Virus record (IMG/VR): IMGVR_UViG_3300032132_000001
Span: 106,573-170,572 of that record
Source of the DNA: a virus
Strand: one strand, 5' to 3'
Length of the DNA stretch: 64,000 nucleotides
Shown: positions 2,457-56,375 of the stretch, one piece after another
Layout of the letters: each line of letters starts with the position of its first letter
Position numbering within the stretch: position 1 is the stretch's first letter
Notes under the pieces: model-generated
Seen by the model: the letters and a program-made list of their open reading frames with translations, nothing else
Told to the model about the DNA's origin: nothing
Database searches by the model: none
Made by a program: the position numbers and the translations under genes

Positions 2457-3098
2457 ATGCTCAATGTAATCTGTGTCAAGTGGGGCACCAAGTACAACCA
2501 CGATTACGTCAATAAGCTGTACAATATGACCCAGCGAAGGCTCAATTACGAGCATCGCTTCATCTGCCTCACCGACAACCCTGCCGGCATAGACCCTATA
2601 ATCGAGTCTTTGCCATTCCCGGAAGACGATACGGGATGGTGGAACAAACTAAACTTGTTTCGACCTTATCTCCACGACATCGAAGGTACTATCCTGTATA
2701 TGGATCTAGATGTCGTGCTTGTGGATAGTATCGACCCGTTGATCAACTACAAGGGCCGAAACTTCTGCATAATCGACGACTGGCTTCCACAGTTTCATCA
2801 TAATTCAAGTGTGATGCGCTTTGAGTTCGGCTCTCAACCACACATATGGACCAACTACGAAGAAAAGAAAGGGCTAATCCGCCAGAACTATAGAGGAGAT
2901 CAAGAATGGATCTCCAGACATGTACCAGATGCTACTACCTGGCCAGAAGGGTGGTGCTTCTCTTACAAATGGGGTGCCAAGCTCAAGGCGCTGAACAAAC
3001 CAGGTGTGGTGCCAGCCAACGGTAAGATTGGCGTATTTGCAGGAAGGCCAAAACAGGACGAAGTATCTGATCTCTGGGTGAAGCGTAACTGGAAGTAG
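2457..3098 (+). CDS. glycosyltransferase-like protein (DxD motif, nucleotide-sugar transferase fold)
   Basis: 213 aa. 'YMDLDVVLVD' DxD motif. N-terminal VICVKWGTKY is typical of sugar transferases. Confidence 0.45.
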   Translation: MLNVICVKWGTKYNHDYVNKLYNMTQRRLNYEHRFICLTDNPAGIDPIIESLPFPEDDTGWWNKLNLFRPYLHDIEGTILYMDLDVVLVDSIDPLINYKGRNFCIIDDWLPQFHHNSSVMRFEFGSQPHIWTNYEEKKGLIRQNYRGDQEWISRHVPDATTWPEGWCFSYKWGAKLKALNKPGVVPANGKIGVFAGRPKQDEVSDLWVKRNWK

Positions 3099-9042: not shown

Positions 9043-9046
9043 AGCC

Positions 9047-23083: not shown

Positions 23084-23134
23084 GCTGCAAAGATAGAAAA
23101 AGCGCTCCTGTCTCACCTCAAAAAGGAGGCAACC

Positions 23135-24085
23135 ATGCAAGTGCGCACTCCGGACACCGATGTAGGTGTCATCATCGGTCGATTCCAGGTTCCAACCCTG
23201 CACGATGGCCATAAGGGCCTCATCGACCATGTGCTGTCCAAGCACAAGAAGGTCTTGATCCTCGTAGGATCAACCCCCGGCATTCGCGCCACGAGGCGGC
23301 AACCCCTCGATTACCACACGCGATTGCTGATGATCCAGGAAGAGTATTCACAAGTCCTGGTCGCTCCCATCACCGACATGCCCTCTGATGAGGATTGGTC
23401 GAGAATGGTGGACGGCAAGATTTATGATACCTTCCAAACTCCATCTGCTGCGCTATATGGCTCCCGTGATGGTTTCATCCCCCACTACAGTGGCAGGTAT
23501 GAGACTGTAGAGCTTGCTTCTTCGATTGACACTTCCGGTTCGAAAGTGCGGAAGGATATTTCAGATGAAGTGCGCCAGCACGAAGAGTTCCGCCGAGGCG
23601 TCATCTATTCGTCGTTCGCCCGCTTCCCCACGATGTATGCTACCGTGGATGTTGCGATCCTGAACGATCTAAACGACTGGATGATCGCACTTTGCAGGAA
23701 ACACAATGATCCTCCTGGGATGTACCGATTCCCAGGCGGCTTCGCAGACCCAAACCAGGATAAGACATTCCTGGAAGCTGCGAAGAGAGAGGCTGAGGAA
23801 GAGTTGGTAGGAGGAATCTTCAAGGATTTCGAATACGTAGGCTCCACCTTAGTCCATGACTGGCGCTACCGCAGCGAAAGCGACAGCATCATGACCACTC
23901 TGTTCGCTGCGAAGCATCATGGTGGTGAACTTGAGCCAGGTGATGATCTCCGAGGTGGAGAGATCAAGTGGTTCAACGTGAGGGACATGGACGATGAAAT
24001 CCTCCTCCCTCAACACCGTGGTCTGATTACTTTGGTGCGGAACCATATTGGTTGCGCAGTCAAGAAAACCAAAACCAAAAAGTAA
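23135..24085 (+). CDS. natV: bifunctional NMN adenylyltransferase / Nudix hydrolase (NatV-like)
   Basis: Nucleotidyltransferase HxGH motif (GRFQVPTLHDGH). C-terminal Nudix box REAEEELVG. SD AAAAGGAGG. Confidence 0.75.
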   Translation: MQVRTPDTDVGVIIGRFQVPTLHDGHKGLIDHVLSKHKKVLILVGSTPGIRATRRQPLDYHTRLLMIQEEYSQVLVAPITDMPSDEDWSRMVDGKIYDTFQTPSAALYGSRDGFIPHYSGRYETVELASSIDTSGSKVRKDISDEVRQHEEFRRGVIYSSFARFPTMYATVDVAILNDLNDWMIALCRKHNDPPGMYRFPGGFADPNQDKTFLEAAKREAEEELVGGIFKDFEYVGSTLVHDWRYRSESDSIMTTLFAAKHHGGELEPGDDLRGGEIKWFNVRDMDDEILLPQHRGLITLVRNHIGCAVKKTKTKK

Positions 24086-24110
24086 CCCGCCTTACGAAAA
24101 GGAGGCAATC

Positions 24111-25511
24111 ATGGGTAAGCAGAATCTGTTGCTCCTCACCGACTCGTACAAGCTCTCACACTACAAGCAGTACCCGGCGAACACATCCAACGTGTACTCG
24201 TACTTCGAGAGCCGAGCAGGAGCTAAGTACAAGACTACCACCTTCTTCGGTCTACAGTACTATCTATACAAGTACCTCGTAGGCCGAGTGGTGACAAGAG
24301 GCGATATCGAAGTGGCTGCGAATATCGCCAAGACTCACTTCAACTCCGATGCACTTTTCTACAAGGAAGGGTGGGAGTACATTCTCAAAGAGCATGACGG
24401 CCACTTGCCGATCAGCATCAAGGCAGTGCCAGAAGGTACCAAAGTTCCCGAAAGCAACGTCATGATGACGATTGAGAACACCGACCCCAACTGTTGGTGG
24501 CTCCCAAACTATCTGGAAACGTTGCTCGTGATGTTGTGGTACCCGAGCACCGTAGCGACGACTTCAGGCCACGTGCGGGACCTCATCAAGCTTGGTCTGG
24601 AAGAGACTGGCGATATTGCCGGCCTTCCTTTCAAATTGCACGATTTCGGTTTCCGTGGCTCGACTAGCGTCGAGTCGGCTGGCATCGGCGGTTTGGCCCA
24701 CCTGGTCAACTTCATGGGCACCGATACTATCGCTGCCTTGACTACGGGCATGGAGTACTACGATAGCGGTTGCGCCGGTTTCTCGATCCCGGCCTCGGAA
24801 CACAGCACGATCACGTCCTGGGGTGAAGATGGAGAGCTGGAAGCGTTCCGCAATATGCTGAAGCAGTATCCGACCGGTCTGGTCGCCTGCGTAAGCGACA
24901 GCTTCGACATCACAGCCGCTTGCAGCGACCTGTGGGGAACCAAGCTCAAGGACGAGGTACTGGCACGGGAAGGTTGCCTGGTCGTAAGGCCGGATAGCGG
25001 CGATATCGTTCCCACGGTGTTGCACGTCTTGGATACTCTAGGTGAGAAGTTTGGCACCTACGAGAACGACAAGGGCTACCGGACGCTGAACGACAAAGTG
25101 AGGGTTATCCAGGGTGACGGTTGTACGCCCGAGACTATCTCACAGGTCGTGCGGAACATGGTGCGCGAGAAGTGGTCGGTGGACAACATCGCCTTCGGCA
25201 TGGGCGGTGGGTTGCTCCAGAGGCTGGACCGCGACACGCAGCGCTTCGCTTTTAAGTGCAGCAGCGTCGTTGTGGACGGCAAGGAGCGGGACGTGTACAA
25301 GCGGCCCGCCACAGATCCCACGAAGAACTCCAAGCGCGGCCGGCTGGCCCTGGTCCGCGAAGATGGGCAGTTGACCACGATCCGTGAAGAGGATCTCGGC
25401 AACCGTGAGGACCATCTCAAAGAGGTGTTCCGGGACGGTGAGATCTTGATCACCGAGGAATGGGGCAACATTCGCGACCGAGCGGCTGGTCTGGCACCAG
25501 TCAGCGCGTAA
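24111..25511 (+). CDS. nadV: nicotinamide phosphoribosyltransferase (NAMPT/NadV)
   Basis: LLTDSYKLSHYKQYP and overall NAMPT-like sequence. The start was taken at the Met with SD AAAAGGAGG (ORF track 24048). Confidence 0.8.
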   Translation: MGKQNLLLLTDSYKLSHYKQYPANTSNVYSYFESRAGAKYKTTTFFGLQYYLYKYLVGRVVTRGDIEVAANIAKTHFNSDALFYKEGWEYILKEHDGHLPISIKAVPEGTKVPESNVMMTIENTDPNCWWLPNYLETLLVMLWYPSTVATTSGHVRDLIKLGLEETGDIAGLPFKLHDFGFRGSTSVESAGIGGLAHLVNFMGTDTIAALTTGMEYYDSGCAGFSIPASEHSTITSWGEDGELEAFRNMLKQYPTGLVACVSDSFDITAACSDLWGTKLKDEVLAREGCLVVRPDSGDIVPTVLHVLDTLGEKFGTYENDKGYRTLNDKVRVIQGDGCTPETISQVVRNMVREKWSVDNIAFGMGGGLLQRLDRDTQRFAFKCSSVVVDGKERDVYKRPATDPTKNSKRGRLALVREDGQLTTIREEDLGNREDHLKEVFRDGEILITEEWGNIRDRAAGLAPVSA

Positions 25512-26578: not shown

Positions 26579-27718
26579 GTGTTCAACGGACGGTTACTAT
26601 TAGGTCCTGGTCCTAGTCTCGTCAGTGAAAAGGTCCTCTGGGCGATGTCCCGCCCAACGATTGGACACCTAGACCCCGAATTCATCAAGATAATGCGAGG
26701 GGTGCAGGACAAACTCCGCCAGGTCTTCCAAACCAGCAACGAGCTGACCTACCCTGTCTCTGGCACCGGCACAGCCGGCATGGAGACCTGCCTCACCAAC
26801 CTGATCGAACCAGAAGATAGGGTTGCCGTGTTGATCAACGGTGTCTTCGGTCAGAGAATGGCCAATCTGGTTCGTCGCCTAAGCGCCGGGACTTGCTACG
26901 AGATCAACTTCCCGTGGGGGTCCCCAATCGAACCTAGCACAGTCAAGGATATCCTTGACTCTGAAGGATCATTCGACGTAATTTGTGCGGTCCACATTGA
27001 TACCTCCACTGGTGTTCAGTCGGATATATGCTCTCTCGGTGAGATAATCCGAAGCGACAATGAAGATACTGTCTTCATAGTGGACGCGGTGACTTCCTTG
27101 GGTGGTTCGGAGCTTTACGTGGACGCCTGGCAGATCGACGCATGTTTCTCTGGTTCTCAGAAGTGTCTCTCTTGCCCTCCGGGCTTAGCTCCCGTCACGT
27201 TCGGCCCGAGAGCCCTCAAAAAGCGGAAAGCACGGAAGACGGCCCTTCCGAGCTTTTACTTTGACATCTTAGAGCTTGAGAAGTATTGGGGCGATGATCG
27301 GGCTTATCACCATACAGCCCCTGTAAACATGATTTACGCTCTAGACGCGGCACTCGATGACGTGCTAAGAGAAGGTCTAGAAAATAGGTGGGAGAGGCAC
27401 AGGAGGGTGTCGGTCAATCTGGTGCATCAGCTTGAGAAGATGGGTATAGAATTACTACCAACTTTCAATACTGCGTCGCGCCCTCTTACCGCAGTGAAGA
27501 TCCCCGAAGGAGTATCTGACTCTTTCGTGCGAGATGAACTTCTGTCCGGGTACAACATCGAGATTGGTGGTGGGCTTGGAGAGTTGAAAGGAAAAGTTTG
27601 GCGAATCGGCCTTATGGGCGAATCAGCTAGAAACGTACATGTACGGACGCTTGTGGAAGCACTAGAAGACGTCCTACGGAGAGAAAAATGGAAAGCGAGT
27701 TCCCAACCAAAGGCGTAG
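26579..27718 (+). CDS. class V aminotransferase (PLP-dependent, AGXT/PhnW-like)
   Basis: 379 aa, GTG start. SGSQKCLSCPPG contains the PLP lysine context. Global class V fold pattern. Confidence 0.6.
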   Translation: MFNGRLLLGPGPSLVSEKVLWAMSRPTIGHLDPEFIKIMRGVQDKLRQVFQTSNELTYPVSGTGTAGMETCLTNLIEPEDRVAVLINGVFGQRMANLVRRLSAGTCYEINFPWGSPIEPSTVKDILDSEGSFDVICAVHIDTSTGVQSDICSLGEIIRSDNEDTVFIVDAVTSLGGSELYVDAWQIDACFSGSQKCLSCPPGLAPVTFGPRALKKRKARKTALPSFYFDILELEKYWGDDRAYHHTAPVNMIYALDAALDDVLREGLENRWERHRRVSVNLVHQLEKMGIELLPTFNTASRPLTAVKIPEGVSDSFVRDELLSGYNIEIGGGLGELKGKVWRIGLMGESARNVHVRTLVEALEDVLRREKWKASSQPKA

Positions 27719-28107
27719 CAATCGGCTGCGGTATTCTTTTTACCCTTATCGTCGCCACGATGGTCGTCTGGCCACAGTATCGGGTATGGAGCAAGGAGCT
27801 GGAAGGTAAAGCGAAGCTCAAAGAGGCCGAGTGGAGCCGCCAGATCGAGATTCAAGAAGCCAAAGCCAAGATGGAAGCCGCAAAGAGCCTCGCGCAGGCC
27901 GAGATCGAGCGCGCCAAGGGTGTAGCCGAAGCCAACAAGATCATCGGAGATTCCCTCAAAGGGAACGAGTCTTACCTCCGATATCTCTGGATTCAGGGCC
28001 TCCACGACGGAAATAGTGAGGTCATCTATGTTCCGACCGAGACCAACCTACCAATCCTTGAAGCTACTCGCAAGCTTCAGAAACCAATAGAAAAGGCCAA
28101 GAAGTGA
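27688..28107 (+). CDS. membrane-anchored SPFH/prohibitin-like protein
   Basis: N-terminal TM helix. C-terminal Ala/Glu/Lys-rich region resembles the HflC/prohibitin C-terminus. Confidence 0.4.
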   Translation: MESEFPTKGVAIGCGILFTLIVATMVVWPQYRVWSKELEGKAKLKEAEWSRQIEIQEAKAKMEAAKSLAQAEIERAKGVAEANKIIGDSLKGNESYLRYLWIQGLHDGNSEVIYVPTETNLPILEATRKLQKPIEKAKK

Positions 28108-28283
28108 TGTTCTTAGACAAGCTCCTCGAATTCGGAGCAATGTTTATATGTTTCATGTTCAAGCTAGCAATGAGGCTAGTATTGTCGCCATTTGTTCTTT
28201 TTGAATGGCTAACCAAACCAAAGAAAAACAATGACCCTTGGCCAAATGTTCCAAGGCCAGGTGAGAGAGGCGGAATAAGATGA
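28107..28283 (+). CDS. small membrane protein (58 aa)
   Basis: Read by hand. The ATG overlaps the upstream TGA. Hydrophobic. Confidence 0.25.
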   Translation: MFLDKLLEFGAMFICFMFKLAMRLVLSPFVLFEWLTKPKKNNDPWPNVPRPGERGGIR

Positions 28284-28855
28284 AAATCCTACTAGATATG
28301 GATGGGGTATTGTGCAACTGGGTAAAGCCGGTTTGTGAGCTTCTCGATGTACCCTATCAAGAAACCTTGGATAACTGGAAGGTTGGTACTCACAATCTAG
28401 CCGGCAATCTTGAAATGGACAGAGCCAAGGTTTGGGAGGTCATCGATAGCGCAGGAGAAGATTTCTGGGCCAACCTGGAATTGTTCCCTTGGACTGAAGA
28501 CATGTGGGAGCACTGCGAGTCTCTCGCAGACACCTACATCCTCACCTGCCCTTCGCTCCACCCCCAGAGCTTGTCTGGTAAGCTGAGGTGGATGCAGAAG
28601 CACCGCAACCGCTTCTTCCGGAAGTACCTCGTCGGCCCTCCCAAGTTCTTGTGCGCCGCCGAAGACACGTTGCTGATCGATGACAAAGACGAGAACATCG
28701 AGAAATTCATCGAGAGAGGCGGCAATGGTATCCTGTTCCCACAGCCCTGGAACAGGAACCATGAACTAGCGACGGAGCCAGCGGTTCGACTCAAATATGT
28801 GAAAGATCAGCTCGCTGAGATCGTAGAAACTCACCGGACTGAATATATTCACTAG
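28280..28855 (+). CDS. HAD-family 5'(3')-deoxyribonucleotidase-like phosphatase
   Basis: Motif I LLDMDGVL. Later IDD motif. Confidence 0.55.
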   Translation: MKILLDMDGVLCNWVKPVCELLDVPYQETLDNWKVGTHNLAGNLEMDRAKVWEVIDSAGEDFWANLELFPWTEDMWEHCESLADTYILTCPSLHPQSLSGKLRWMQKHRNRFFRKYLVGPPKFLCAAEDTLLIDDKDENIEKFIERGGNGILFPQPWNRNHELATEPAVRLKYVKDQLAEIVETHRTEYIH

Positions 28856-28859
28856 TAAA

Positions 28860-28937
28860 GCCGGCGTAGCTCAGTCTGGTCAGAGCGGCTGATTTGTAAT
28901 CAGCGGGTCGGGGGTTCGAATCCCTCCGCCGGCTCCA
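28860..28937 (+). tRNA. tRNA-Thr(TGT)
   Basis: Acceptor GCCGGCG/CGCCGGC, anticodon loop TTTGTAA, CCA encoded. Confidence 0.75.
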
Positions 28938-28939
28938 CG

Positions 28940-29263
28940 ATGACTAGTTGGAATAAACTAAGAAAACGTGCTCACCTAGCTGCAATCTGGGACGGATCTT
29001 CCATACCCAAAGTCACTATGCTCGCAAAAGTCGCGATCAGTGAAGCAAAATACAGAAATTTCAAACCGGTAATAGACGAAGAAACTCTGGCTGATCCAGA
29101 ATTTATACCGGATGGCATCCTCCTGGACCTCTTCGCCAACGAAGAAGAGGAATATCTACTTGATTTAGAAACCGATATAGTATACATAATGGCGCGCGGT
29201 TGCGCTCAAAGCCAAGCCAAAAACGCGGAAGATATCAAGGCGATCATTGGCGCCTGTATATAA
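28940..29263 (+). CDS. hypothetical protein
   Basis: 107-aa ORF starting right after the tRNA. Confidence 0.4.
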   Translation: MTSWNKLRKRAHLAAIWDGSSIPKVTMLAKVAISEAKYRNFKPVIDEETLADPEFIPDGILLDLFANEEEEYLLDLETDIVYIMARGCAQSQAKNAEDIKAIIGACI

Positions 29264-29290
29264 CCATACAAGCCTACCAGGAGGGCAAGT

Positions 29291-29770
29291 ATGCGAGTAA
29301 TCGAAGGGGTGAGAGTCCGTGATTTGAAGGTGATCACGGACGAACGTGGGCGTCTCATGGAGATGCTACGTTCTGACTCTGATATCTTCATCAAGTTCGG
29401 ACAGATGTACATGACCACTGCTTATCCCGGCGTGGTCAAAGCATGGCACTATCATAAAAAGCAGACTGATTACTTCGTCTGCGTAAAGGGTATGATGAAA
29501 GTCGTCCTTTATGATGATCGCCACGAGAGCCCTACCTTTGGAGAACTAAACGAGTTCTTCATCGGTGAACATAGCCCCCGAGTCATCGTCATTCCGCCTC
29601 TTGTTTACCACGGTTTCAAGTGCATCTCAGACACAGAAGCTATGGTGATCAATTGCCCCACTGAAGTGTACAACTACGATCAGCCTGACGAATATCGAAT
29701 CTCACCGCATCGCGGAGTAACAGAGTCAGGCGATCTGATTCCATACGATTGGAAGAGATCAGATGGGTAA
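29291..29770 (+). CDS. cupin-fold dTDP-sugar epimerase/isomerase (RmlC/FdtA-like)
   Basis: 159 aa with an RmlC-like cupin pattern. Adjacent to the sugar nucleotidylyltransferase. Confidence 0.5.
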   Translation: MRVIEGVRVRDLKVITDERGRLMEMLRSDSDIFIKFGQMYMTTAYPGVVKAWHYHKKQTDYFVCVKGMMKVVLYDDRHESPTFGELNEFFIGEHSPRVIVIPPLVYHGFKCISDTEAMVINCPTEVYNYDQPDEYRISPHRGVTESGDLIPYDWKRSDG

Positions 29771-30119
29771 CATTCAAGTTTGGTTTATCCCGGCGATGAT
29801 GGCCATTATGGTAGTCATCCTATTGGCCCGCCGCGAGATGAGGAAGCGTGCTTGTGCCCGGGGCGACCACCAGATCATGAGGAAGCATTGGTGCGGATAC
29901 TCCCTAGATGCGCCACAAGGGCACAGCGGATTTCGAGCTGTGGCCTACAGCCTGCACACGAGCTGGTTACAGTGCCGCTGTGGGTATCTCCCAGAAAGTG
30001 AAAAACGAGAAGTCCACGATTGTGATTCTATTCAGAGTTTGGAGATGCCAGACTACGATTGGCGTCGACTACGATCTGATCGTATACTGACCCAATCAAC
30101 ATGGTGGCGAAAAGCATGA
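29763..30119 (+). CDS. hypothetical membrane protein
   Basis: N-terminal TM helix. 118 aa. Confidence 0.35.
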   Translation: MGNIQVWFIPAMMAIMVVILLARREMRKRACARGDHQIMRKHWCGYSLDAPQGHSGFRAVAYSLHTSWLQCRCGYLPESEKREVHDCDSIQSLEMPDYDWRRLRSDRILTQSTWWRKA

Positions 30120-30874
30120 AGGGTATAATCCTAGCTGGAGGGTTGGGCACTCGCCTTTATCCTCTCACCAAGATCACCAACAAGCACCTCTTGCCGGTCT
30201 GGAATAGGCCGATGATCCACTACCCTCTCCAGATGTTGAGGGAGGAGGGGATCGATGAGATCTGTCTCGTCGTCGGAGGTACCTTCGCTGGCCAGTTCAT
30301 CCAACTCTTGGGTAACGGCGAATGCTTCAACCTGAAGCACCTTCACTACGTCTACCAGGAAGGGGAAGGCGGGATCGCTGAAGCTCTCCGCCTTACTCGA
30401 TCATTCGTAGAAGGGGAAGACGTCATCGTAGCTCTCGGTGATAACATCTTCGATTACCCGATTGATGATTTCATCAACGATTTCCATTCCCAGGAAGGTC
30501 CGAAGAAAGCACAGATCTACCTGGCAGAAGTAGACGATCCATGTCGCTTTGGTAATCCTGAAATCAGCGAAGATGATAAGATCGTCCGCATCATAGAAAA
30601 GCCAGATAAGCCTGTATCCAAGTACGCTGTAACCGGGCTGTACTGCTACGATTCTTCCGTTTTTGATGTGATCGACACTCTCGTGCCATCTGCACGAGGA
30701 GAGCTTGAAATCACGGATGTCAACAACGCCTATCTGAAAATGGGCGCTCTGGAACACACCTATGCAGATGGCTGGTGGACCGACGCCGGCACTTTTGAGT
30801 CTCTGCGTCTAGCTAGCGACCTAGTTTACAAGAAAGAGCGCCGCGAGTTTCGCGAGTTCGACAAGATGCTTTAG
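30116..30874 (+). CDS. sugar-1-phosphate nucleotidylyltransferase (RmlA/RfbF-like)
   Basis: MKGIILAGGLGTRLYPLT signature. The start is the internal Met of ORF 30101..30874. Confidence 0.7.
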   Translation: MKGIILAGGLGTRLYPLTKITNKHLLPVWNRPMIHYPLQMLREEGIDEICLVVGGTFAGQFIQLLGNGECFNLKHLHYVYQEGEGGIAEALRLTRSFVEGEDVIVALGDNIFDYPIDDFINDFHSQEGPKKAQIYLAEVDDPCRFGNPEISEDDKIVRIIEKPDKPVSKYAVTGLYCYDSSVFDVIDTLVPSARGELEITDVNNAYLKMGALEHTYADGWWTDAGTFESLRLASDLVYKKERREFREFDKML

Positions 30875-31128
30875 GGTAACTGGCATCTCACCACGAAGCG
30901 TGGCGGATTCCGTTGGTATTCCCAGTCTTCTGGGTTATATCCGTCAATGATAAATGGTCGGGTCCCCCCAAGCTTTTCCATTATTCCTCGTAAACTATTA
31001 AACTCAAAAGTCTGTACAGGACCGCCATATGGCTCGCTGCTACAAGCGATACCCATGTTTTCGATCTTGTCACGAGTCAATAATTCTGGCATTCGATGAT
31101 CTCCAAAAAATTCCTGCGTTAGATACAT
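30871..31128 (-). CDS. hypothetical protein
   Basis: ORF 30871..31254 trimmed to Met43. Its start overlaps the divergent plus gene in a CATG palindrome. Confidence 0.3.
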   Translation of the reverse strand: MYLTQEFFGDHRMPELLTRDKIENMGIACSSEPYGGPVQTFEFNSLRGIMEKLGGTRPFIIDGYNPEDWEYQRNPPRFVVRCQLP

Positions 31129-31531
31129 GAGTAGAGAAAAACCAACCCTCCCAGAAATAGTACATTTCTGGATTAGAGAATATATTGAAACGGTAGATGA
31201 TGTCTTTATTTCCTTCCCGGTTTTCATGGACGATGATTGGTATAGATCATTCAATGTGATCCACTTAGCACATAAGAAGTTCCGAACTAGAATGCACTTT
31301 GATATTCAGCTGAAGTATGTTGGGCTCTTTTGGGCTGTGGAGACTTACAGCAAGAAAGATATGACCAAGACGGAACTGAAAAGAGGGAAACCAGTCTTCC
31401 CTTATGATCCGGAGTTCTTTGACGATATAGGTACATATATTCAAGAGTGGATAACGGAGAATCTGGAGAAGGAAGATGAAGAAGAAATGCAGCAAATGCA
31501 AGGACCCGAAGGACCCGAGCGAATTCTATAA
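31127..31531 (+). CDS. hypothetical protein
   Basis: 134-aa ORF. Confidence 0.4.
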   Translation: MSREKPTLPEIVHFWIREYIETVDDVFISFPVFMDDDWYRSFNVIHLAHKKFRTRMHFDIQLKYVGLFWAVETYSKKDMTKTELKRGKPVFPYDPEFFDDIGTYIQEWITENLEKEDEEEMQQMQGPEGPERIL

Positions 31532-32099
31532 AGATAGTCGCAATAAAGATGGCCTACAGTCCGCTTGCATAGTATGCCACAAAGAAGTCTTGGCAGACTG
31601 GCGCTCCCGAAACAAGGATAAGGTCAAGAAGTATAATAAAGATAAGCGGCAGAGGAAGAAAGAAGGCATCGTGAAGAAACATCGATTCCAAAAGATTGCC
31701 ACGCTTTATTCCGAGATGGCAAAGGAAAGTGGTGTTCGCAACGAGCTGACCAAAGAACAGCTCGATACCGTCGCAGCGCATTGGCATAGCCGGTGCGTGT
31801 ACTGCGGAGAGATCTCTGAGACCTTCGACCATCTTTCTCCAATCACAGGTACCGGCCCAAACATCCTCTACAACGTAGTGCCAGCCTGCGAAGGGTGTGC
31901 CCTCAAGAAGAACGAGACAGACCTATTCTTCTGGGCGTTCATCGCGGGCAAGAAGATAGGCCCTATCTTGACCTGGGCAGCTCGCGACACCGAACTCATC
32001 AAAGAGTTGAACCGAATAAGGGAGAGGTCTTGCGCTCACTCTTTCCAATCAGAGATGAGAATAGCACTGAAGGCGGCGATCAGTAACCCTCAAAAATAA
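31476..32099 (+). CDS. HNH endonuclease-like protein with N-terminal zinc ribbon
   Basis: CSKCK...CIVCH. HNH core FDHLSPITGTGPNILYNVVPACEGCALKKNE. Confidence 0.5.
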   Translation: MKKKCSKCKDPKDPSEFYKDSRNKDGLQSACIVCHKEVLADWRSRNKDKVKKYNKDKRQRKKEGIVKKHRFQKIATLYSEMAKESGVRNELTKEQLDTVAAHWHSRCVYCGEISETFDHLSPITGTGPNILYNVVPACEGCALKKNETDLFFWAFIAGKKIGPILTWAARDTELIKELNRIRERSCAHSFQSEMRIALKAAISNPQK

Positions 32100-32102
32100 T
32101 CT

Positions 32103-32357
32103 ATGGACACTTCCGGTCTCATAGAAATCGCCCACATCCAAAATCTGACGCGCCAACCGGTCCAGATTATCGTAGACGAACCGGAAGAAGACACGGCTCC
32201 CATCCTGTTTGCAGGGAGCGGCTTAGTCTACCTCGCTCCAGGTGAGACGATCGAGGTGAGAGAGGAGCGGGTGAATCGCGGCCAACTGGAGTACCTGTTC
32301 CAGGAGCGGTTCATCTTCTTACGTTATATGCAGCGGGATATCGACGCCGTTACGTAA
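32103..32357 (+). CDS. hypothetical protein
   Basis: 84-aa ORF. Confidence 0.35.
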   Translation: MDTSGLIEIAHIQNLTRQPVQIIVDEPEEDTAPILFAGSGLVYLAPGETIEVREERVNRGQLEYLFQERFIFLRYMQRDIDAVT

Positions 32358-32724
32358 GTTCTTTGAGAAACGGTCGTCTCACCCCATCCGGCCCAAAGTT
32401 GGCAATTTGCCATCTTAGGGACGCAAACCGGACATTGATCCAGTAGCCGTCTGGGAATTCTGCTGCTTTGCCGTTCCTGTAATACGAAGGCGGGAGAGAC
32501 CAACTCTCTTCAGTAAGACTGACTTCCCAATCGGCCTTCTTGAAACCTCGCGCTCGTGCTTCTTGTCTGATTCGTTTCCAAACGGCTTCCCGAGCGGTCC
32601 ACCATCCGCATTCGACCCCGTACCGATGCTGAGATTCAGCTATTATTACTTCTACTAGATCTATAGTTTCTAGCTGTAGCTGATCTATAGAAACCGGAGT
32701 TAGTCCAAACAGCCATCTAAGCAT
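32350..32724 (-). CDS. hypothetical protein
   Basis: 124-aa ORF. Confidence 0.35.
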   Translation of the reverse strand: MLRWLFGLTPVSIDQLQLETIDLVEVIIAESQHRYGVECGWWTAREAVWKRIRQEARARGFKKADWEVSLTEESWSLPPSYYRNGKAAEFPDGYWINVRFASLRWQIANFGPDGVRRPFLKELT

Positions 32725-33214
32725 CTCTCAATATCCTTCGCACGTCGGTTAGGACCTCTCCCAACCAGTTCTTGCCGAGCCAGTCGATCCGGCGCTGGGC
32801 TGCAGGGTCACTCTCTCGCAGGCCAATGCCCCAGATCTTGTCATAGGGCGAAGCTTCTACTAGGGTAGTGCCTTCGGTATTTTCTAGTCTGTGTAGTAGA
32901 TGGGCGTTCTGAGTGAACTTAGCCACGTTTCCACGATGGACTATGTTCCAACAGCGTGGGCGGCCGTTTTCTTCGTCTTCAGTCCACGTGTCGAAGTCGA
33001 AATTCTGGACCTGACGCCCAAGCTTTTTCTGCACCTTGGGGCTGTCGCTCTCCATGATCATTCGGAGAGTCTCTTCGTCCTTGAAGAGACGTGCTTTCTC
33101 CGCCATCATGTACTGTTCTGCACAGTTATATTCTATGGTATCAATTGTGAAGTAGCTATAATACCATTGAGAGAAGGGGCCGTTCCAGAAGAACGTGAAC
33201 TGTTCGTCATGCAT
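32717..33214 (-). CDS. NADAR-domain protein (YbiA-like, DUF1768)
   Basis: FTFFWNGPFSQW...EQYMMAEKARLF...DWLGKNWLGEVL matches NADAR signatures. The start is the internal Met of ORF 32717..33406. Confidence 0.6.
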   Translation of the reverse strand: MHDEQFTFFWNGPFSQWYYSYFTIDTIEYNCAEQYMMAEKARLFKDEETLRMIMESDSPKVQKKLGRQVQNFDFDTWTEDEENGRPRCWNIVHRGNVAKFTQNAHLLHRLENTEGTTLVEASPYDKIWGIGLRESDPAAQRRIDWLGKNWLGEVLTDVRRILRDA

Positions 33215-33410
33215 TGATTTGGATTTCCATTCTCTTCTTGCACTTGGGACATTCGCACCGGAACTTGACATATTCGATCTGGTCAATTCCAGAGTCGTAC
33301 GACGTGACTCGGAGCCACATATTCTTGGGCGGAATGTCAACCTCACCACAGTCAGGGCATAGCACCTTGAAAGACACCATGGCAGGCTCGATAGTATAAG
33401 TATCACCCAT
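33207..33410 (-). CDS. small zinc-ribbon protein
   Basis: CPDCG...CECPKC. Confidence 0.4.
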   Translation of the reverse strand: MGDTYTIEPAMVSFKVLCPDCGEVDIPPKNMWLRVTSYDSGIDQIEYVKFRCECPKCKKRMEIQINA

Positions 33411-33576
33411 CTGATTTCTTACCGTAAACCTTTTGGAACTTTTCTTCTAAGCACTTCAGCCTATATTGCATTTGGGATATAGTACAATCCATACTGTGCT
33501 TCATGCCATTCAGACTGCTTTTCGCAGACTTAATTTCGTCAGCTAGTCTGGCTTGGACTTGATCCGTCTCTTCCAT
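33403..33576 (-). CDS. small coiled-coil protein (57 aa)
   Basis: MEETDQVQARLADEIKSAKSSLNGMKHS... Read by hand. ATGGGTGA overlap with the downstream gene. Confidence 0.25.
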   Translation of the reverse strand: MEETDQVQARLADEIKSAKSSLNGMKHSMDCTISQMQYRLKCLEEKFQKVYGKKSDG

Positions 33577-34060
33577 CTGACGCCTCCGTGCTTAGATCGG
33601 ACAGATCAAATACGGGAACGGCCGCTTCATTTGGATGTAAGAGCTTGTGGCAATGACGACATTTCGAGTCAGATAATAGGTTCTTAGTATGACAACTGCT
33701 ACATGCGGCTGTTTCTATCTTCTTGGGGCTCTTCTGGGAACGTTTCTTTGGCGCCCCTTCGCGGATGAAGAACTTTTTCGACTTTCGTAGTACCTTGTTG
33801 CCGCTCTTCTCTTCTCTGAGCATGAAGAGAACGCCCCGTTTGGTAATTTGGACGCCCTCGATGACAGCTGGTTGGTTGGAGCGGATACCGATAGCCGTCA
33901 CTGGCTCCCCGATAAGCTCGATCAGATTCTTAACTGTGAGTTTTTCAAGCTTCTTCTTATCGAGATTTTCTAGTATCTCTTTGGGAGTCATGAGGACATA
34001 CCTTCTGTTTGGAACGTCAGGGTCGTCGGTGATCAAGTCTGCGATGTCGTCAGGCTTCAT
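33539..34060 (-). CDS. hypothetical basic protein with N-terminal leader motif MKPDDIADLITDDPDVPN and C-terminal CxxCH...CxHCH
   Basis: 173-aa ORF. The N-terminal motif is shared with three other ORFs. Confidence 0.5.
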   Translation of the reverse strand: MKPDDIADLITDDPDVPNRRYVLMTPKEILENLDKKKLEKLTVKNLIELIGEPVTAIGIRSNQPAVIEGVQITKRGVLFMLREEKSGNKVLRKSKKFFIREGAPKKRSQKSPKKIETAACSSCHTKNLLSDSKCRHCHKLLHPNEAAVPVFDLSDLSTEASDGRDGSSPSQTS

Positions 34061-34062
34061 GG

Positions 34063-34323
34063 TTAGGTATACCGTAGAGCTTTCCCGATCATCATCCAGA
34101 GCGCTTCCAGCTCTGAGGTTGACATGTTAGCGTAGGAGCTGCCTAGATCCAGAGAGTAGAACGAGTTCTCTTCCATCTCTATTTTAGAAATTCCAACTCT
34201 AGTGATCAATTGGTGGATCTCATCCCCTACTACTTGGTCGTCTGGTCTCCGGACCAGGACAAATTTCTTGGCAGGAATTTCCATTTCATCGTGCCAGACA
34301 AGCTCAGCAGGGTCGTCGGTCAT
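34063..34323 (-). CDS. hypothetical protein
   Basis: 86-aa ORF with an ATGA overlap. Confidence 0.4.
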   Translation of the reverse strand: MTDDPAELVWHDEMEIPAKKFVLVRRPDDQVVGDEIHQLITRVGISKIEMEENSFYSLDLGSSYANMSTSELEALWMMIGKALRYT

Positions 34324-36269
34324 AGGTATTTCCTAACCACGTTGGGGTATTGTGCTCTTAGTCTGTTCCGAAGTTCATTTAGGGCTAATGGTTTGTTCGC
34401 ATTGTAGCGATTATAGAACCGCTGCATGATACCCTTATTTATCCTATGCCGCTTCTCCCATCCGGGAGATCTACCATGCCATAGATGGAACAAAGACACT
34501 GTTCTTTCATTGAAGAATTTGCAATTGTCCTTCAATCGAATGAAGAAGTCGCAATCTTCACACCCATAGCCAACGTAGGCATCATTGAACCCACCAACCT
34601 GGAAGTAAGTTTTCCTGTGGCAAGCTAGAGACCCTCCCTCGAAGTATCCCACTGCACGTTCGCATTCATTAGTTTCGGTCACCTTGCCCTTATTGAATAT
34701 CTCATGGGTGGTCCCATGGTTGAAATAGAGGACATATTTTCCAACGTGAACACCTTCATATTCATTTAGCAGTTTGAATATCTTCCCTGCATAGTCATTG
34801 GACATCATGATGTCCGCATCTTGGAGTAGTAGGCGTTCGGTCTGCGCCACTGCGGCCCCAAGGTTGAAGGCTACCGCTTTCGTGAATGGTTGGTCAGGAG
34901 ATTTCCCGGCGATTTGCCTGTGGGTGCATGGCCCAATCTTGTCATAGCGAACTTTCTTCATCACATCTTGTTCTACTACGATCAAATCAATGTGGGGGAA
35001 CAGTTGCCCCTTCATGTTCATGGCGACCGTTTCGATTACTCTTACATCGCGATCTTCGGCCCGGCACGGGATAATAATAGACATCCCAGGAACATCACAG
35101 CTTGGCGTAGCGTTTACTTTGATGCGGTTGTGATCTTTCTTGTGTTGGTTGAAGATCGACCTATTATCTCGAAGCCCAGATTTGGGCACTGAGGTGATCT
35201 CAGGGTGGATTTTGAAGAACTTATCAGCGCCATCAACGTCGTGGAAACCGGGCGGTTGAATCTTAGATAATCCCACGCGGTTAGACCAATCTACGTGCTC
35301 CATCCCATAGTAGCCAAACTGTTCATCGAAATATCCGACGCGCTGGAAGGCTGTTTCATCTAGTGCCATCACAGCACCATGTGGTTTATCGTGTATAGTC
35401 TTGATTATCTTGCCGCTGACTCTAGATCCTGAACCGTCTTTGGCCGTTGCACCATATACACCAGCCTGGCGATAGCAGAAGTGGTGGTACTTCTTGGTAA
35501 GCTCCATCACTTCAAAGTAGAAGCTGTCCCAACCACGGCTCATAATCTGAACGTCGTCATTCAGCAAGAGCTTATACTTGAATCTTCTCAAGCAGTTCAG
35601 TAAACGGTTGCTTTGACCAGCGATCCCCAACCGTACCGAATTGTCCAATAATACTATATCTTTCTGCTCTCGAAGCCATTTCTTCACTTCGGGCCTGTCG
35701 GACTCATCGCTTACGAAGATCGTCGTCTTGGACAGATCTGTGAAATTCCGGATTGAATCGAGCAGTCGTCGTATGCAGTGTAGCCTATTGTAACTTAGGA
35801 TTCCTACTCCGATGTTGTTGGAAATAGGAATGGTGAGACCAGAGGATTCAGCACGAAAGAGGCGCGTTGCATCTCCAGAAATAGCTCTGCCAACCATACG
35901 GCCTCTAGTTCGGCGACCAACATAGTTAGCTCGTCCTCGTTTCCGGGTCGGCTGTCTAGGCTTTCTCTGTCCACGTGGCGATTTCTTCCTATCACTATTG
36001 GGGTTTACCCCTGCAGCGCGTCTTCGTTTCACGATTTTTACTGCGCTCTTTTTTTTCAGTTTCCCCTTCTTAGTAGAAGGGCTCGGAAGGCTTATTTGCT
36101 CTTTCTGGGCGTCCCCTATGACCCGTACTTCCCGTAAGAACTGAGGAGAGTATTTGGAGAACCACTTGGGTAGTACAACCCTTGCCGACTTAGGTACTCT
36201 GATGACTTTGCCATCAGGCCCAGGCAGGGTTATACTGTACGGATGTGGGTTTACGTACTCTATCAGCAT
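34320..36269 (-). CDS. large glycosyltransferase with two GT2/GT-A-like domains and an N-terminal Lys/Arg-rich region
   Basis: Two separate GT-A modules: ILSYNRLHCIRRLLDSI...VSDESD and MSIIIPCRAEDRDVRVIETV...VEQD. Basic 90-aa N-terminus. Confidence 0.55.
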   Translation of the reverse strand: MLIEYVNPHPYSITLPGPDGKVIRVPKSARVVLPKWFSKYSPQFLREVRVIGDAQKEQISLPSPSTKKGKLKKKSAVKIVKRRRAAGVNPNSDRKKSPRGQRKPRQPTRKRGRANYVGRRTRGRMVGRAISGDATRLFRAESSGLTIPISNNIGVGILSYNRLHCIRRLLDSIRNFTDLSKTTIFVSDESDRPEVKKWLREQKDIVLLDNSVRLGIAGQSNRLLNCLRRFKYKLLLNDDVQIMSRGWDSFYFEVMELTKKYHHFCYRQAGVYGATAKDGSGSRVSGKIIKTIHDKPHGAVMALDETAFQRVGYFDEQFGYYGMEHVDWSNRVGLSKIQPPGFHDVDGADKFFKIHPEITSVPKSGLRDNRSIFNQHKKDHNRIKVNATPSCDVPGMSIIIPCRAEDRDVRVIETVAMNMKGQLFPHIDLIVVEQDVMKKVRYDKIGPCTHRQIAGKSPDQPFTKAVAFNLGAAVAQTERLLLQDADIMMSNDYAGKIFKLLNEYEGVHVGKYVLYFNHGTTHEIFNKGKVTETNECERAVGYFEGGSLACHRKTYFQVGGFNDAYVGYGCEDCDFFIRLKDNCKFFNERTVSLFHLWHGRSPGWEKRHRINKGIMQRFYNRYNANKPLALNELRNRLRAQYPNVVRKYL

Positions 36270-36321: not shown

Positions 36322-36579
36322 CTATTTGGGCTTTAGTATCTGCTTATCGTGCGCAGCTTTGCCCTTGGTGGTAGACTTGCCAGGAGTATTATAGTCATGA
36401 TCAAAGTCCGAAGTAGCATACTTCATCATGAACCGGGAGCCCTTTCCAGCCTTCGCTCCCTTCGGCAAGCCCGTCTTCTCATCCTCCCAGCCTTTGTAGG
36501 GGTCCGTAACGCCCTTGCTTGGCTGTGAACCCGTCTTTACCGGGGTCGTATAGTCTTCGTAGAGGAGAGAAAGTTTCAT
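36322..36579 (-). CDS. hypothetical protein
   Basis: 85-aa ORF. Confidence 0.35.
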   Translation of the reverse strand: MKLSLLYEDYTTPVKTGSQPSKGVTDPYKGWEDEKTGLPKGAKAGKGSRFMMKYATSDFDHDYNTPGKSTTKGKAAHDKQILKPK

Positions 36580-37415
36580 AGATATTCGCCGTACCAGCTT
36601 ACTTTATCGTCTTGCTGGTCTTCCCACTTCTTCCTTTTGCGACCCATCAAGATATCTCGATCTTTCTTATCGAGCACTTGAGTGGTCATCGGCATCGCGA
36701 TGGAACCAGTGGTTGTAGTCGCTTCATCTAGCAGTTGGTTGATTGCGCCGTAAAGGATGGTCTTCTCGTTTTCCGTGAGGCCGATCTCTTCGATGGCGTT
36801 CTCTACGAGCCCAAGCCCGCGCTCGATGCTCGCCATCGGGACTTCAGGAACCTCAGCAGCAGGCCGAGCCCCAACATCGTCTGGCATCTCTTGATCAGGA
36901 GCCTGGGCGCCCATTGGAGCCCTGGCGCCTTCGGGGGTGGGGTCCCCGAGCTTTTCGCCAGCCGCCGATCCTTGTGGGATCTCATCGTAGTAGTTGTATA
37001 CTGCGAGGGCTTCGGCACCACGCTTCGCGGACATCTGCATCAGAGTGCCGCTAAGCTTGATCAGAGCCGCTTCAAGAGCCCTGTTCGGTCCGCTAAGAAG
37101 ACCAGTGATCTGGTTGGCGTATTCGCCGAGACCAACACTGACCTGGTTGTTCCCTAAAACGTTAGCTGCTTGGCTGAGAAATTGCTTAGCAGCATGGAGT
37201 TTGTGGAACGCCCTCATAGACTCACGCATCTTATCGGCGTCTGAGAACTCTACAGCCTCAGGTTTCGGAGGTTTCTCCGCACCGCCAGCAAGTTCAGGTC
37301 TGTCTAGAGGGACTTCTGGTTCTGCGGCCAAGTCTGCGTCGAGTTCCGCGTCAAGCGGGTCCTCTCCGATAGCTTCGGCCAACAGTCGGCGTTGTCTTGA
37401 TGATAGTTTGTTCAT
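36576..37415 (-). CDS. hypothetical Ala/Glu/Pro-rich protein
   Basis: 279-aa ORF. The antisense plus ORFs are low complexity. Confidence 0.4.
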   Translation of the reverse strand: MNKLSSRQRRLLAEAIGEDPLDAELDADLAAEPEVPLDRPELAGGAEKPPKPEAVEFSDADKMRESMRAFHKLHAAKQFLSQAANVLGNNQVSVGLGEYANQITGLLSGPNRALEAALIKLSGTLMQMSAKRGAEALAVYNYYDEIPQGSAAGEKLGDPTPEGARAPMGAQAPDQEMPDDVGARPAAEVPEVPMASIERGLGLVENAIEEIGLTENEKTILYGAINQLLDEATTTTGSIAMPMTTQVLDKKDRDILMGRKRKKWEDQQDDKVSWYGEYL

Positions 37416-55008: not shown

Positions 55009-55447
55009 GCTTTTGCCGTAGCTTCTTTCGGCAGTCTGAGCACAAAAGAGTTCCTGTCATCACTGGTTCTGCTAAACCTGGGATCGGCGTAAACACAGCC
55101 GCTCCTCCGCATTCTTCGCAGATTTCCATCGATTTCCGTCCAGCTTCTGCTATTATCTCTCGGAGGTTTTCTAATATCTCTTTACTCGCTTTACACCTGA
55201 TGTAGATACGCAATGTGCAGAACTTCTGTTTCACCTGCACAATTCTTACTTTAGATAATCCTTCATCTACAACAGATAGGTAGTCGTGCATCTTCTTGGA
55301 AGTTTCCCAAACGAGATCATGCCAACCGTCTCCGACACAGACCCCACATCGGACATCTTCATATAATTGAGGGAAAGCTTTCTGAAGCTTTCCATAGAAT
55401 AGATTCTTTTCAGGATCTAAGTAATCAGGGACTCTTCCGCGTCTCAT
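54989..55447 (-). CDS. hypothetical Cys-rich protein
   Basis: 152-aa ORF. Confidence 0.35.
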   Translation of the reverse strand: MRRGRVPDYLDPEKNLFYGKLQKAFPQLYEDVRCGVCVGDGWHDLVWETSKKMHDYLSVVDEGLSKVRIVQVKQKFCTLRIYIRCKASKEILENLREIIAEAGRKSMEICEECGGAAVFTPIPGLAEPVMTGTLLCSDCRKKLRQKHAPEEV

Positions 55448-56375
55448 GCTTATTAGATACGATCTTAGTCAAGCGATTTAGACAGGATGATACACACATG
55501 AGATCATCGTGTTGAGCTAAGCTGCCCACACAATAGATACCATCTTTCTCAAGGTAGTCCAGATTGGGAGGTGGGCCAAGAGGGAAAGCGTTAGAAATAG
55601 AAGTGTGATTCACACTTTGGAAGTCATCTACAAACGCGTGGAGTACCGCATCGTTGAGCCAGGAGAAGGATTCAAAGACGAAATCGACAGGAGAATAACG
55701 AGATACCTTGTAGAACGGAATCTCTTCATCTGCTACATGCACGATATACGATTCTTCGAAATCTAACGATTTGGTTGCGATATGTCTATAGTAAACATCG
55801 TTAGACTTAAACGAAAGATCATATTCACACCATTTATTTAAAACATCTAGCGGCACTGTGCTGATTATATTTTCATATTCTAACACGCCACCATCGAGCA
55901 GCCTTATAAGTCTGTTGATTGGATCAATAGATGCTATGCCGCCATAGCCTTCATTGTTTTCTGTTAGTTCCTTCATGTACCTCTTTTGAAGCCTCTGGTA
56001 CACATCTTGGGCGCTGACACCGTACACGAAACGTTCAAGCTTCATGAGGTCTTTAGCGATCGGGTGCATATCTTCGCCATAGACCTTGCTAAGATAGGTC
56101 TGAATGGCAAGAGGGGAACTAAAGAAAACGAGAGAGCCGCTCAGAGATATTGCATTTTGGACCATATAGGTCATCGAATGCGGAGCAACGTCCTTGATAA
56201 ACGGCTCAATTTCAGGGTGAGCTATAATATAGTTGTCGGCCAATGGTGGGTTGAAACTATAAAACAGGCTTTGCCCCATAGGGATGATTTCCCAATCGGG
56301 GCACATAACCTTGGCCGCGAGAGCAATCAGCCCTCCGCCTAGGATATAGTTCTTAGACTTCAAAGGTTCCGGCAA
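55425..56375 (-). CDS. FAD-dependent oxidoreductase, UDP-galactopyranose mutase-like
   Basis: N-terminal dinucleotide-binding motif NYILGGGLIALAA. Overall Glf-like length and pattern. Confidence 0.4.
   Translation of the reverse strand: MPEPLKSKNYILGGGLIALAAKVMCPDWEIIPMGQSLFYSFNPPLADNYIIAHPEIEPFIKDVAPHSMTYMVQNAISLSGSLVFFSSPLAIQTYLSKVYGEDMHPIAKDLMKLERFVYGVSAQDVYQRLQKRYMKELTENNEGYGGIASIDPINRLIRLLDGGVLEYENIISTVPLDVLNKWCEYDLSFKSNDVYYRHIATKSLDFEESYIVHVADEEIPFYKVSRYSPVDFVFESFSWLNDAVLHAFVDDFQSVNHTSISNAFPLGPPPNLDYLEKDGIYCVGSLAQHDDLMCVSSCLNRLTKIVSNKHETRKSP

Follow-up and report, generated by a model that had tools for sequence, protein, structure and literature searches.

Glycosyltransferases encoded by phages are usually sporadic accessory genes. 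Giant viruses possess multi-glycosyltransferase polypeptides and sugar-nucleotide pathways (rhamnose included) by which capsids or fibrils are glycosylated, and A064R of PBCV-1 is a further multi-domain glycosyltransferase of this kind. The capsid proteins of the F1 mycobacteriophages Che8 and Rita have been reported to be glycosylated (PMC11256854), and jumbo phages were described to mix cupin sugar isomerases, sugar-phosphate nucleotidyltransferases and several glycosyltransferases (Iyer et al. 2021, PMC7824862). Here we analysed 64,000 nucleotides of viral DNA (positions 106,573 to 170,572 of the IMG/VR record IMGVR_UViG_3300032132_000001; termed the window in the following) with a focus on the gene at 34320..36269 on the minus strand, which encodes a bifunctional glycosyltransferase (dual GT) of 649 amino acids (aa) as judged by Pfam, AlphaFold2 (AF2), Foldseek and the synteny of 84 loci. 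This gene is a clade-wide core gene and not an accessory one. The window is a 64-kb portion of the genome of an uncultured jumbo phage of ~397 kb; a contig of 397,419 bp encodes an exact copy of one of the window's proteins, and Logan contigs of run SRR9663116 contain parts of the window sequence. Among cultured phages, Megablast gave no near DNA match to the window region 26-37 kb and tblastn no match to its gp32-like protein. An earlier note on this DNA had combined six open reading frames (ORFs), the dual GT among them, into one dispersed set for sugar-nucleotide synthesis and glycosyl transfer. All six are in place, and 34320-36269 and 55425-56375 lie on the minus strand, a detail that the note did not give. 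The genes are real, with family matches far beyond chance, and the phage indeed has sugar-nucleotide genes (RmlA and an RmlC-like cupin) plus several glycosyltransferases, but they are spread over different modules rather than forming a set.

Pfam assigns Glycos_transf_2 to aa 156-243 of the dual GT and Glyco_tranf_2_2 together with Glyco_transf_7C to aa 397-594. The first GT-A domain (~aa 128-375, 35145..35888, minus strand like all parts of the gene), which also matches phrog_2456 (2.5e-22), carries the invariant residues D188 and N237-D238-D239 (DxD), and the second (~aa 390-649, 34320..35102) the invariant D484/D486 (DAD), E571-D572 and H595/H598. An alignment of 104 homologues showed both DxD motifs and the E-D/His motifs to be without variation. 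Judged by these motifs, both GT-A domains of the chain are predicted to be metal-dependent (DxD) and catalytically intact. The earlier note had described two GT2 domains behind a Lys/Arg-rich N-terminus of 90 aa. Both transferase domains stand, as GT-A domains, whereas the basic part turned out to be a linker of ~aa 55-125 (35895..36107) that is preceded by a folded stretch of aa 1-54. In the AF2 model of the protein, with a predicted local distance difference test (pLDDT) of 89.8 and a predicted template modelling score (pTM) of 0.81, disorder is confined to aa 55-120, where pLDDT drops below 50. The polybasic linker of the window protein contains 27 Lys/Arg and 3 Asp/Glu residues in its 73 aa, giving a net charge of +24. 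Across the 104 homologues, it has a median length of 68 aa with 25% Lys+Arg and 5% Asp+Glu, and a net charge with a median of +13 and a range of +5 to +30, while its sequence and length are not conserved. The beta domain of aa 1-54 (36108..36269), delimited by the alignments A1 and A2 and modelled with a pLDDT of ~95, is specific to the family, and a phmmer search of 1.84 billion representatives found it in no other architecture, but just in family members or fragments. Multi-stretch matches of this domain to P0133, P0141 and P0148 were rejected as spurious repeat matches to 'GPDGK'. A transmembrane (TM) segment was not found in the dual GT protein.

A search of 5.8 billion proteins resulted in at least 478 full-length homologues, mostly of 620-660 aa and with 40-76% identity over 94-100% of the query, on contigs of up to 372 kb. 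From IMG/VR, 158 dual GT loci on contigs of up to 388 kb were retrieved by alignment-based queries, which were also used for RmlA; single-protein queries gave nothing in either case. Among prokaryotes, represented by one genome per species, the dual GT is present on 3 contigs of metagenome-assembled genomes (MAGs) across 185,579 species, and the family is therefore in effect exclusive to phages. Two distant homologues, P0002 and P0084, carry LAGLIDADG inteins at an identical site of domain 2, G569|C570 (GYG|CED), and the intein-splicing family PF14890 is annotated also in P0089, P0099, P0111 and P0116. Catalytic sites under strong conservation are the typical targets of inteins.

The genes that precede the dual GT encode DnaB, PolA, gp32, an exonuclease, a PDDEXK protein and four small proteins, and ~63-83 of the 84 related loci retain them with unchanged order and strand; for the upstream replication block as a whole, conservation amounts to about 75 of 84 loci. 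One of the four small genes encodes a DUF1360-like protein with two TM segments (2-TM); apart from this weak match, no family matches were obtained for them. The flank downstream of the dual GT is variable among the 84 loci, and the conserved part of this block of replication genes ends with the dual GT. It is directly followed in 77 of the 84 loci by the gene of a CgeB-like glycosyltransferase of the GT-B type (PF13524, ~330 aa), which in P0106 is fused to the dual GT. This partner is present neither in the window nor in its closest relative L170, whose dual GT is 76% identical, and searches with it against PDB and NCBIfam returned nothing informative. In the window, an 86-aa gene from the ORF list (34063..34323, minus strand) overlaps the end of the dual GT gene by 4 bp at the stop codon, and an 88% identical counterpart occupies the same position in L170. 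An additional GT-A enzyme (Glyco_tranf_2_5) is encoded in 30 and an SDR epimerase/dehydratase-like protein in 16 of the 84 loci, and in L171 the dual GT and the GT-B gene are immediately followed by LamG, Nudix, NeuB, two formyltransferase, PIG-L, GNAT and GFO genes. No sugar genes of the L171 type were found in the window, and several other relatives have no sugar genes at this site. A core enzyme in a constant position, the dual GT has at its side a variable region that often, though not always, holds sugar genes. At the opposite end, 38 of the 84 relatives have a P-loop kinase gene (AAA_33/KTI12-like; for example 9483-10010 of L057, 175 aa) that directly adjoins the start of the dual GT gene or overlaps it; the window lacks this kinase gene. 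In the window, the gene of a Cys-rich repeat protein of 392 aa with an HNH_3 motif (37430-38608, minus strand) is inserted where the conserved small genes give way to the dual GT. Both this gene and 36322-37415 are missing in the 84 relatives, and different HNH genes are located there in others.

The sugar-nucleotide genes of the window are encoded on the plus strand. The earlier note's sugar-1-phosphate nucleotidylyltransferase at 30116..30874 (the ORF also starts at 30101) is recognized as a short-form, RmlA-like glucose-1-phosphate thymidylyltransferase by NTP_transferase (PF00483, 7.7e-49) and PDB entry 3hl3 (3.7e-68). In NCBIfam, it matches TIGR01208 (1.8e-63, 214.6 bits against an equivalog cut-off of 320) and TIGR01207 (3.4e-62, 210.2 bits against an equivalog cut-off of 360.7), which places it in the RmlA family with a nucleotide and sugar specificity that is only predicted. 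The reading of 29291..29770 as an RmlC/FdtA-like cupin is borne out by a match to dTDP_sugar_isom (PF00908, 6.4e-17, above the cut-off), by the FdtA model (1.5e-7) and by cupin matches. Its best PDB match is the 'dTDP sugar isomerase' 3ejk (1.8e-24), followed by RmlC enzymes, and its His53 and Tyr127 align with the catalytic His and Tyr of RmlC 1ep0, pointing to an epimerase of the NDP-4-keto-6-deoxyhexose type. The nearest viral relatives of the cupin (57-59% identity) always adjoin RmlA (L086-L088, L090). A role of the RmlC type is supported by L087, because a homologue with 59% identity fills the rmlC slot in its operon with the order rmlA-cupin-rmlD-rmlB. No RmlB or RmlD was detected in the window by tblastn with the L087 proteins (nothing better than E 0.15). 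RmlA genes are common in phages, with 117 related loci in IMG/VR, and in the best 80 of them the region within 5 kb holds rmlA alone in 48 cases, rmlA with rmlB in 19, with rmlD and rmlB in 5, with the cupin and rmlB in 4, with rmlD in 2 and all four genes in 2, so that RmlA and the cupin without RmlB were never seen among these 80. Given this and the lack of RmlB and RmlD in the window, the missing steps probably come from the host or from genes in the remainder of the 397-kb genome. The contigs of the best 80 of the 117 RmlA loci and of the best 80 of the 158 dual GT loci do not overlap, which at this depth of listing says nothing about co-occurrence of the two genes. The cupin is neighboured by an NT5C-type 5'-deoxynucleotidase gene (28280..28855, plus strand; PF06941 1.6e-10, phrog_2643) that is also present in L170. 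In this relative, RmlA and the cupin are located within ~2.5-3.7 kb of the dual GT, and the trio RmlA-cupin-NT5C, contained in 5.5 kb, converges on it as its counterpart in the window does. A spacer of 345 bp (29771-30115) separates the cupin and RmlA genes in the window; they abut in L170 and L088. The ORF 29763-30119 in this place, Cys-rich and with one predicted TM helix, was dismissed as a pathway gene and is absent from L170 and L088.

Taken as a whole, these data are tentatively best explained by separate modules, in which the dual GT builds a glycan on an acceptor supplied by the phage, the rml genes form an accessory cassette, and the aminotransferase of the window is unrelated to both, an account that we hold to be somewhat short of an even chance. 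The strict conservation of the dual GT would be best explained if the phage itself provides the acceptor. Domain 1 hints at a protein in this role, as the mycobacteriophage glycosyltransferases that it resembles include enzymes of cluster F1, to which Che8 and Rita with their reportedly glycosylated capsids belong (PMC11256854), and giant viruses set a precedent for multi-glycosyltransferase enzymes that work together with sugar pathways of the same virus. According to this model, the dual GT would add two different sugars from common host UDP-sugars, sequentially or alternately, to a phage-provided acceptor that is most probably a virion protein or another phage protein, and the adjacent CgeB-like GT-B would extend or prime the glycan in most relatives. 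Given that the dual GT ends the replication block, it is probably expressed together with early or middle genes. RmlA and the cupin, an accessory cassette within a tRNA/metabolic island, may raise or redirect the supply of a dTDP-6-deoxyhexose of the L-rhamnose type, relying on RmlB and RmlD from the host or from elsewhere in the genome, and this cassette would probably feed a lineage-specific decoration of the dual GT glycan. Several findings weigh against this interpretation. No acceptor was identified, and the major capsid gene is not located within the window. The similarity of domain 1 to mycobacteriophage glycosyltransferases, at least some of which belong to cluster F1, is weak (22-24% identity over aa 94/133-421, best E 5e-10). 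The cupin carries an Asp in place of the enolate-stabilising Lys of the QGK motif in 1ep0, a Lys that is likewise missing in 3ejk, and reaches 44.9 bits with TIGR01221 against a cut-off of 155.75, and the RmlA scores remain under the NCBIfam equivalog cut-offs as well. The link of the rml genes to the dual GT rests on the one close relative L170, and most relatives have no sugar-nucleotide genes including RmlA near the dual GT. Finally, the closest structural analogues and the position of the gene are also in line with other acceptors. We rank a phage-made protein before a host envelope polymer and the latter before DNA, all three as candidates and none as demonstrated.

A Foldseek search of the PDB with the dual GT model returned two-site co-polymerases of glycosaminoglycans or matriglycan on top (to 1e-12), namely the chondroitin polymerase K4CP of E. 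coli K4 (2e-16), human LARGE1, CHSY3-CHPF and the Pasteurella heparosan synthase PmHS2, followed by COLGALT1 and LH3, and the A2 family profile matches the N-terminal GT2 domain of PmHS2 (5e-9), K4CP and the beta4GalT7/1 motif. The best of these analogues are membrane-acting polysaccharide polymerases, and together with the conserved 2-TM DUF1360-like gene in the same block they make an envelope polymer fit equally well. The dual GT would then be a two-site co-polymerase that, early in infection, produces a glycosaminoglycan-like polysaccharide of repeating disaccharides on the inner side of the host membrane, thereby remodelling the surface of the infected cell, for instance to block superinfection. 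The linker, conserved in basic charge and not in sequence, would tether the enzyme to anionic lipids. Chloroviruses make hyaluronan, and surface remodelling was proposed for the glycosyltransferase clusters of jumbo cyanophages. Surface-glycan genes are normally sporadic and polymorphic, whereas the dual GT is strictly conserved as a core gene in phages from marine, freshwater and sediment habitats, whose hosts must differ. Furthermore, the enzyme has no TM segment, and no export, flippase or ABC-transporter genes are found in any annotated neighbourhood. Although clusters of cupin, nucleotidyltransferase and glycosyltransferase genes in jumbo phages were read as surface-polysaccharide modification (Iyer et al. 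2021, PMC7824862), we consider an envelope polymer to be rather unlikely, yet the most serious alternative to a phage-supplied acceptor. The position at the end of a conserved replication block and the disordered polybasic linker suit a nucleic-acid substrate, too. In this case, the dual GT would act on hydroxymethylated or otherwise modified bases, similar to the T-even glucosyltransferases or the GT-A base-J glucosyltransferase, and the linker would bind DNA. The AAA_33 P-loop kinase immediately upstream in 38 loci and the NT5C and UDG-like genes of the window are compatible with such a role, and phage inteins are commonest in genes of DNA metabolism. In contrast, 6-bp palindromes are depleted in the window (summed observed/expected ratio 0.846; Mann-Whitney p = 2e-5 versus non-palindromes). 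GAGCTC, CTCGAG, AGGCCT and CCGCGG are absent at 8-18 expected occurrences each, while none of 3,714 non-palindromic hexamers of similar expectation is absent. The palindrome ratio is below 1 in 58/58 non-redundant relatives with a median of 0.879. Work attributed to Sharp in 1986 and to Rocha in 2001 is said to have shown that palindrome avoidance is expected under type II restriction and not for wholesale hypermodified DNA as in T4. The depletion therefore argues against wholesale DNA glycosylation, and the test speaks to global modification of the DNA, not to rare or sequence-specific modification. As a separate observation, GTCGAC was counted once in the window versus 12.9 expected, and TTAA occurs at half of its expected count. 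No gene for a thymidylate-synthase-like hydroxymethylase or a TET/JBP protein was found in the scanned window ORFs (64 of 397 kb) or in the annotated neighbourhoods, and the structural neighbours of the dual GT use glycan or protein acceptors. Glycosylated or hypermodified phage DNA, as the earlier note had envisaged, is thus disfavoured, and we regard it as improbable.

The same note had proposed that a class V aminotransferase, the cupin and the nucleotidylyltransferase cooperate to make an amino-deoxy-sugar nucleotide for the glycosyltransferases. The three genes are indeed located on one strand within 4.3 kb, the cupin scores on the FdtA model (1.5e-7), and FdtA-type 3,4-ketoisomerases act just ahead of sugar aminotransferases. 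The protein encoded by 26579..27718 (plus strand) is a pyridoxal phosphate (PLP)-dependent aminotransferase of class V (Aminotran_5, 3.9e-19), but of the AGXT/serine-pyruvate type and not of the sugar type. Its PDB matches are the alanine-glyoxylate enzyme 1vjo (4e-93 over aa 4-367), PucG (2e-78), human AGT (~1e-64) and insect AGT, and its translation contains the AGT-type PLP-lysine motif SGSQK ('FSGSQKCL'). The NCBIfam models for pyridoxamine-pyruvate, aspartate-glyoxylate (BhcA) and 2-aminoethylphosphonate (AEP; PhnW) transaminases all matched below their cut-offs, and Pfam gave Aminotran_5 only, with no match to DegT/DnrJ/EryC1 (PF01041), the family relevant to the proposed route. By its family matches, this protein is predicted to be an amino-acid/glyoxylate enzyme that is unrelated to sugar synthesis. 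Moreover, a tRNA gene, a membrane-protein gene, NT5C and another ORF separate the aminotransferase from the cupin. The aminotransferase is absent from L170, which keeps RmlA, the cupin and NT5C, as well as from all RmlA and cupin relatives examined, and neither a 4,6-dehydratase nor a reductase is encoded in the window. The three-enzyme route is therefore highly improbable.

Two further genes of the presumed set lie outside the regions discussed so far. The DxD transferase at 2457..3098 (plus strand) is a small glycosyltransferase homologous to PmgQ of phage P1, matching phrog_1962 'glycosyltransferase' (7.5e-28 over aa 7-212) and, weakly, GT8 (0.0026). By tblastn, its relatives are found in Pelagibacter phage Mosig (2e-26), in XacN1 and in P1 pmgQ (27% identity, 98% of the length). 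The protein encoded by 55425..56375 (minus strand), previously called Glf-like, is a flavoprotein to which this term applies at the level of the fold. With an AF2 model of pLDDT 86.6, the top 34 Foldseek PDB matches are all UDP-galactopyranose mutases (UGMs; E 1.5e-14, template modelling score TMq 0.62-0.69), and amine oxidases rank after them. It represents a rare family with 12 homologues, in which the N-terminal GxGxxA is conserved and I11, G13, G15 and A21 are invariant. It shares the fold and the N-terminal dinucleotide-binding motif with UGM, but comprises 316 aa compared to 370-510 aa, is 11-13% identical and gives no Pfam GLF match. Neither Pfam nor NCBIfam nor PHROG contained a match to it, and phmmer reached a weak E of 0.054 with 4dsg. 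In contrast to genuine Glf proteins, it is not encoded among glycan genes but between DnaE and a UDG-like gene, and the order DnaE, UGM-like, UDG is found in three phages (window 54319-56375, minus strand; L178 7001-9571; L179 7001-8565), with a CTP_transf_3 cytidylyltransferase between the UGM-like gene and the UDG-superfamily gene of L178. Its catalysis as a true UGM is putative only.

The window is organized in two parts, a plus-strand island of ~5-32 kb and a minus-strand replication block of ~32-62 kb. The island contains 22 tRNA genes (7215-28937, plus strand) interspersed with auxiliary genes for an RNA ligase, an RRF-like protein, a caspase-like peptidase, NAMPT, NMNAT-Nudix, a CoaB-like/aldolase fusion, the aminotransferase, NT5C, the cupin and RmlA, and a tRNA gene lies just upstream of the aminotransferase, of NT5C and of the cupin, respectively. 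The replication block encodes a split DnaE, a UDG-like protein, RecA, DnaB, PolA, gp32, a 5'-3' exonuclease and a PDDEXK nuclease, with the dual GT near its end. DNA polymerase III alpha is divided into two ORFs (57220-59805 and 60666-62156, minus strand) with two small ORFs in between, and the DnaE of L178 and L179 either contains intein/endonuclease domains or is split further. The ribosome-recycling-factor-like protein (PF01765, 6.8e-26) is encoded at 13926-14330 on the plus strand. The auxiliary region also harbours the genes of the caspase-like peptidase C14 (6079-6996, plus strand, 1.3e-32), a patatin-like phospholipase (3564-4382, minus strand, 2.2e-21) and a dual-specificity phosphatase (8936-9457, plus strand). 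The NAD-related genes comprise the CoaB-like/class II aldolase fusion (phrog_35624), NMNAT-Nudix and NAMPT (21758-25511, plus strand), to which a NADAR-domain protein on the opposite strand (32717-33406, minus strand) was grouped. A protein of 163 aa (17284-17775, plus strand) matches T4 gp23 (PF07068) over the N-terminal ~45 residues of gp23 only, as does a second small protein of 154 aa in L169 (1717-2181), and both may carry a prosequence of a prohead-targeting-like kind. In the sequence that continues to the left of the window, L169 holds only small ORFs without known function and no sugar genes.

A description of the dual GT family, of inteins in glycosyltransferases or of core glycosyltransferases of jumbo phages was not found in the literature. 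Apparently undescribed are the architecture of N-domain, linker and tandem GT-A domains, its status as a syntenic core gene in an uncultured clade, the invasion of a catalytic motif by inteins and the variable sugar surroundings. Sugar-nucleotide genes and glycosyltransferases in jumbo phages are of an already known kind, and RmlA/RmlC, the PmgQ-like glycosyltransferase and the aminotransferase represent ordinary auxiliary metabolism. What sets the dual GT apart is its conservation at 40-76% identity in hundreds of large contigs at a fixed locus, its absence from cellular genomes, the inteins and the variable sugar genes. This suggests that a widespread clade of uncultured jumbo phages depends on glycosylation as a mandatory part of its life cycle. 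A more far-reaching idea, which we consider unlikely as it stands, is that the dual GT marks an undescribed phage glycan system in a cosmopolitan clade of 200-400-kb phages, with a polybasic-tethered two-site co-polymerase that coats a structure made by the phage, such as the capsid, the fibres or an intracellular replication compartment, with a repeating glycan, and with lineage-specific sugar islands, for rhamnose here and for nonulosonic or N-formyl sugars in L171, that diversify the coat. If true, this system would be to bacterial viruses what the clade-specific glycosylation of fibrils is to giant viruses, and if the virions are glycosylated, aquatic jumbo phages would join actinophages and giant viruses as bearers of virion glycan coats. 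The dual GT family would be of use as a marker gene of the clade, and the dual GT, a single soluble enzyme, is amenable to expression and to tests of donors and acceptors.

Compared with known systems, the dual GT shares with K4CP, PmHS2, LARGE1 and CHSY3-CHPF the presence of two GT-A domains per chain, each with its own DxD site, and its domain 2 matches the GT2 domains of K4CP and PmHS2 by profile. It differs from these enzymes by an identity of only 9-14% and by the lack of a sequence match of domain 1 to them. The whole-chain template modelling score is 0.23-0.30, and the domains are therefore oriented differently from those of K4CP-type enzymes. In contrast to them, the dual GT possesses an additional N-domain and a polybasic linker, it is found in phages only and outside a capsule locus, and its polymerising activity is putative. 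The T4 DNA glucosyltransferases have a GT-B fold, in contrast to the GT-A fold of the dual GT. With regard to the dTDP-L-rhamnose pathway, RmlA and an RmlC-family cupin are present, and all four genes form one operon in L087, but only 2 of 4 steps are encoded in the window, and the cupin is of the short type represented by 3ejk, a subfamily without the canonical Lys. In BFVD, which holds no homologue of the family at ≥30% identity, the nearest structures are multi-glycosyltransferase proteins of giant viruses and uncultured tailed phages (best 2e-18, 12-13% identity). The GT2 proteins of Megaviridae and Moumouvirus, the best BFVD matches, resemble the dual GT as virus-encoded multi-glycosyltransferase polypeptides and differ as proteins of eukaryotic viruses with other domain orders and an identity of 12-13%. 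The mycobacteriophage glycosyltransferases are phage GT-A enzymes and the sole relatives of domain 1 in cultured phages (343 records), annotated as 'polypeptide N-acetylgalactosaminyltransferase'-like and likewise encoded outside the structural genes. However, they are single-domain accessory genes of phages of ~55-61 kb and match over one domain, whereas the dual GT has two domains and belongs to the core genes of phages of 200-400 kb. The clusters of Iyer et al. (PMC7824862) contain the same mix of genes as the window. They occur sporadically and in polymorphic form, whereas the dual GT is found without exception at its syntenic place and only the genes around it vary.

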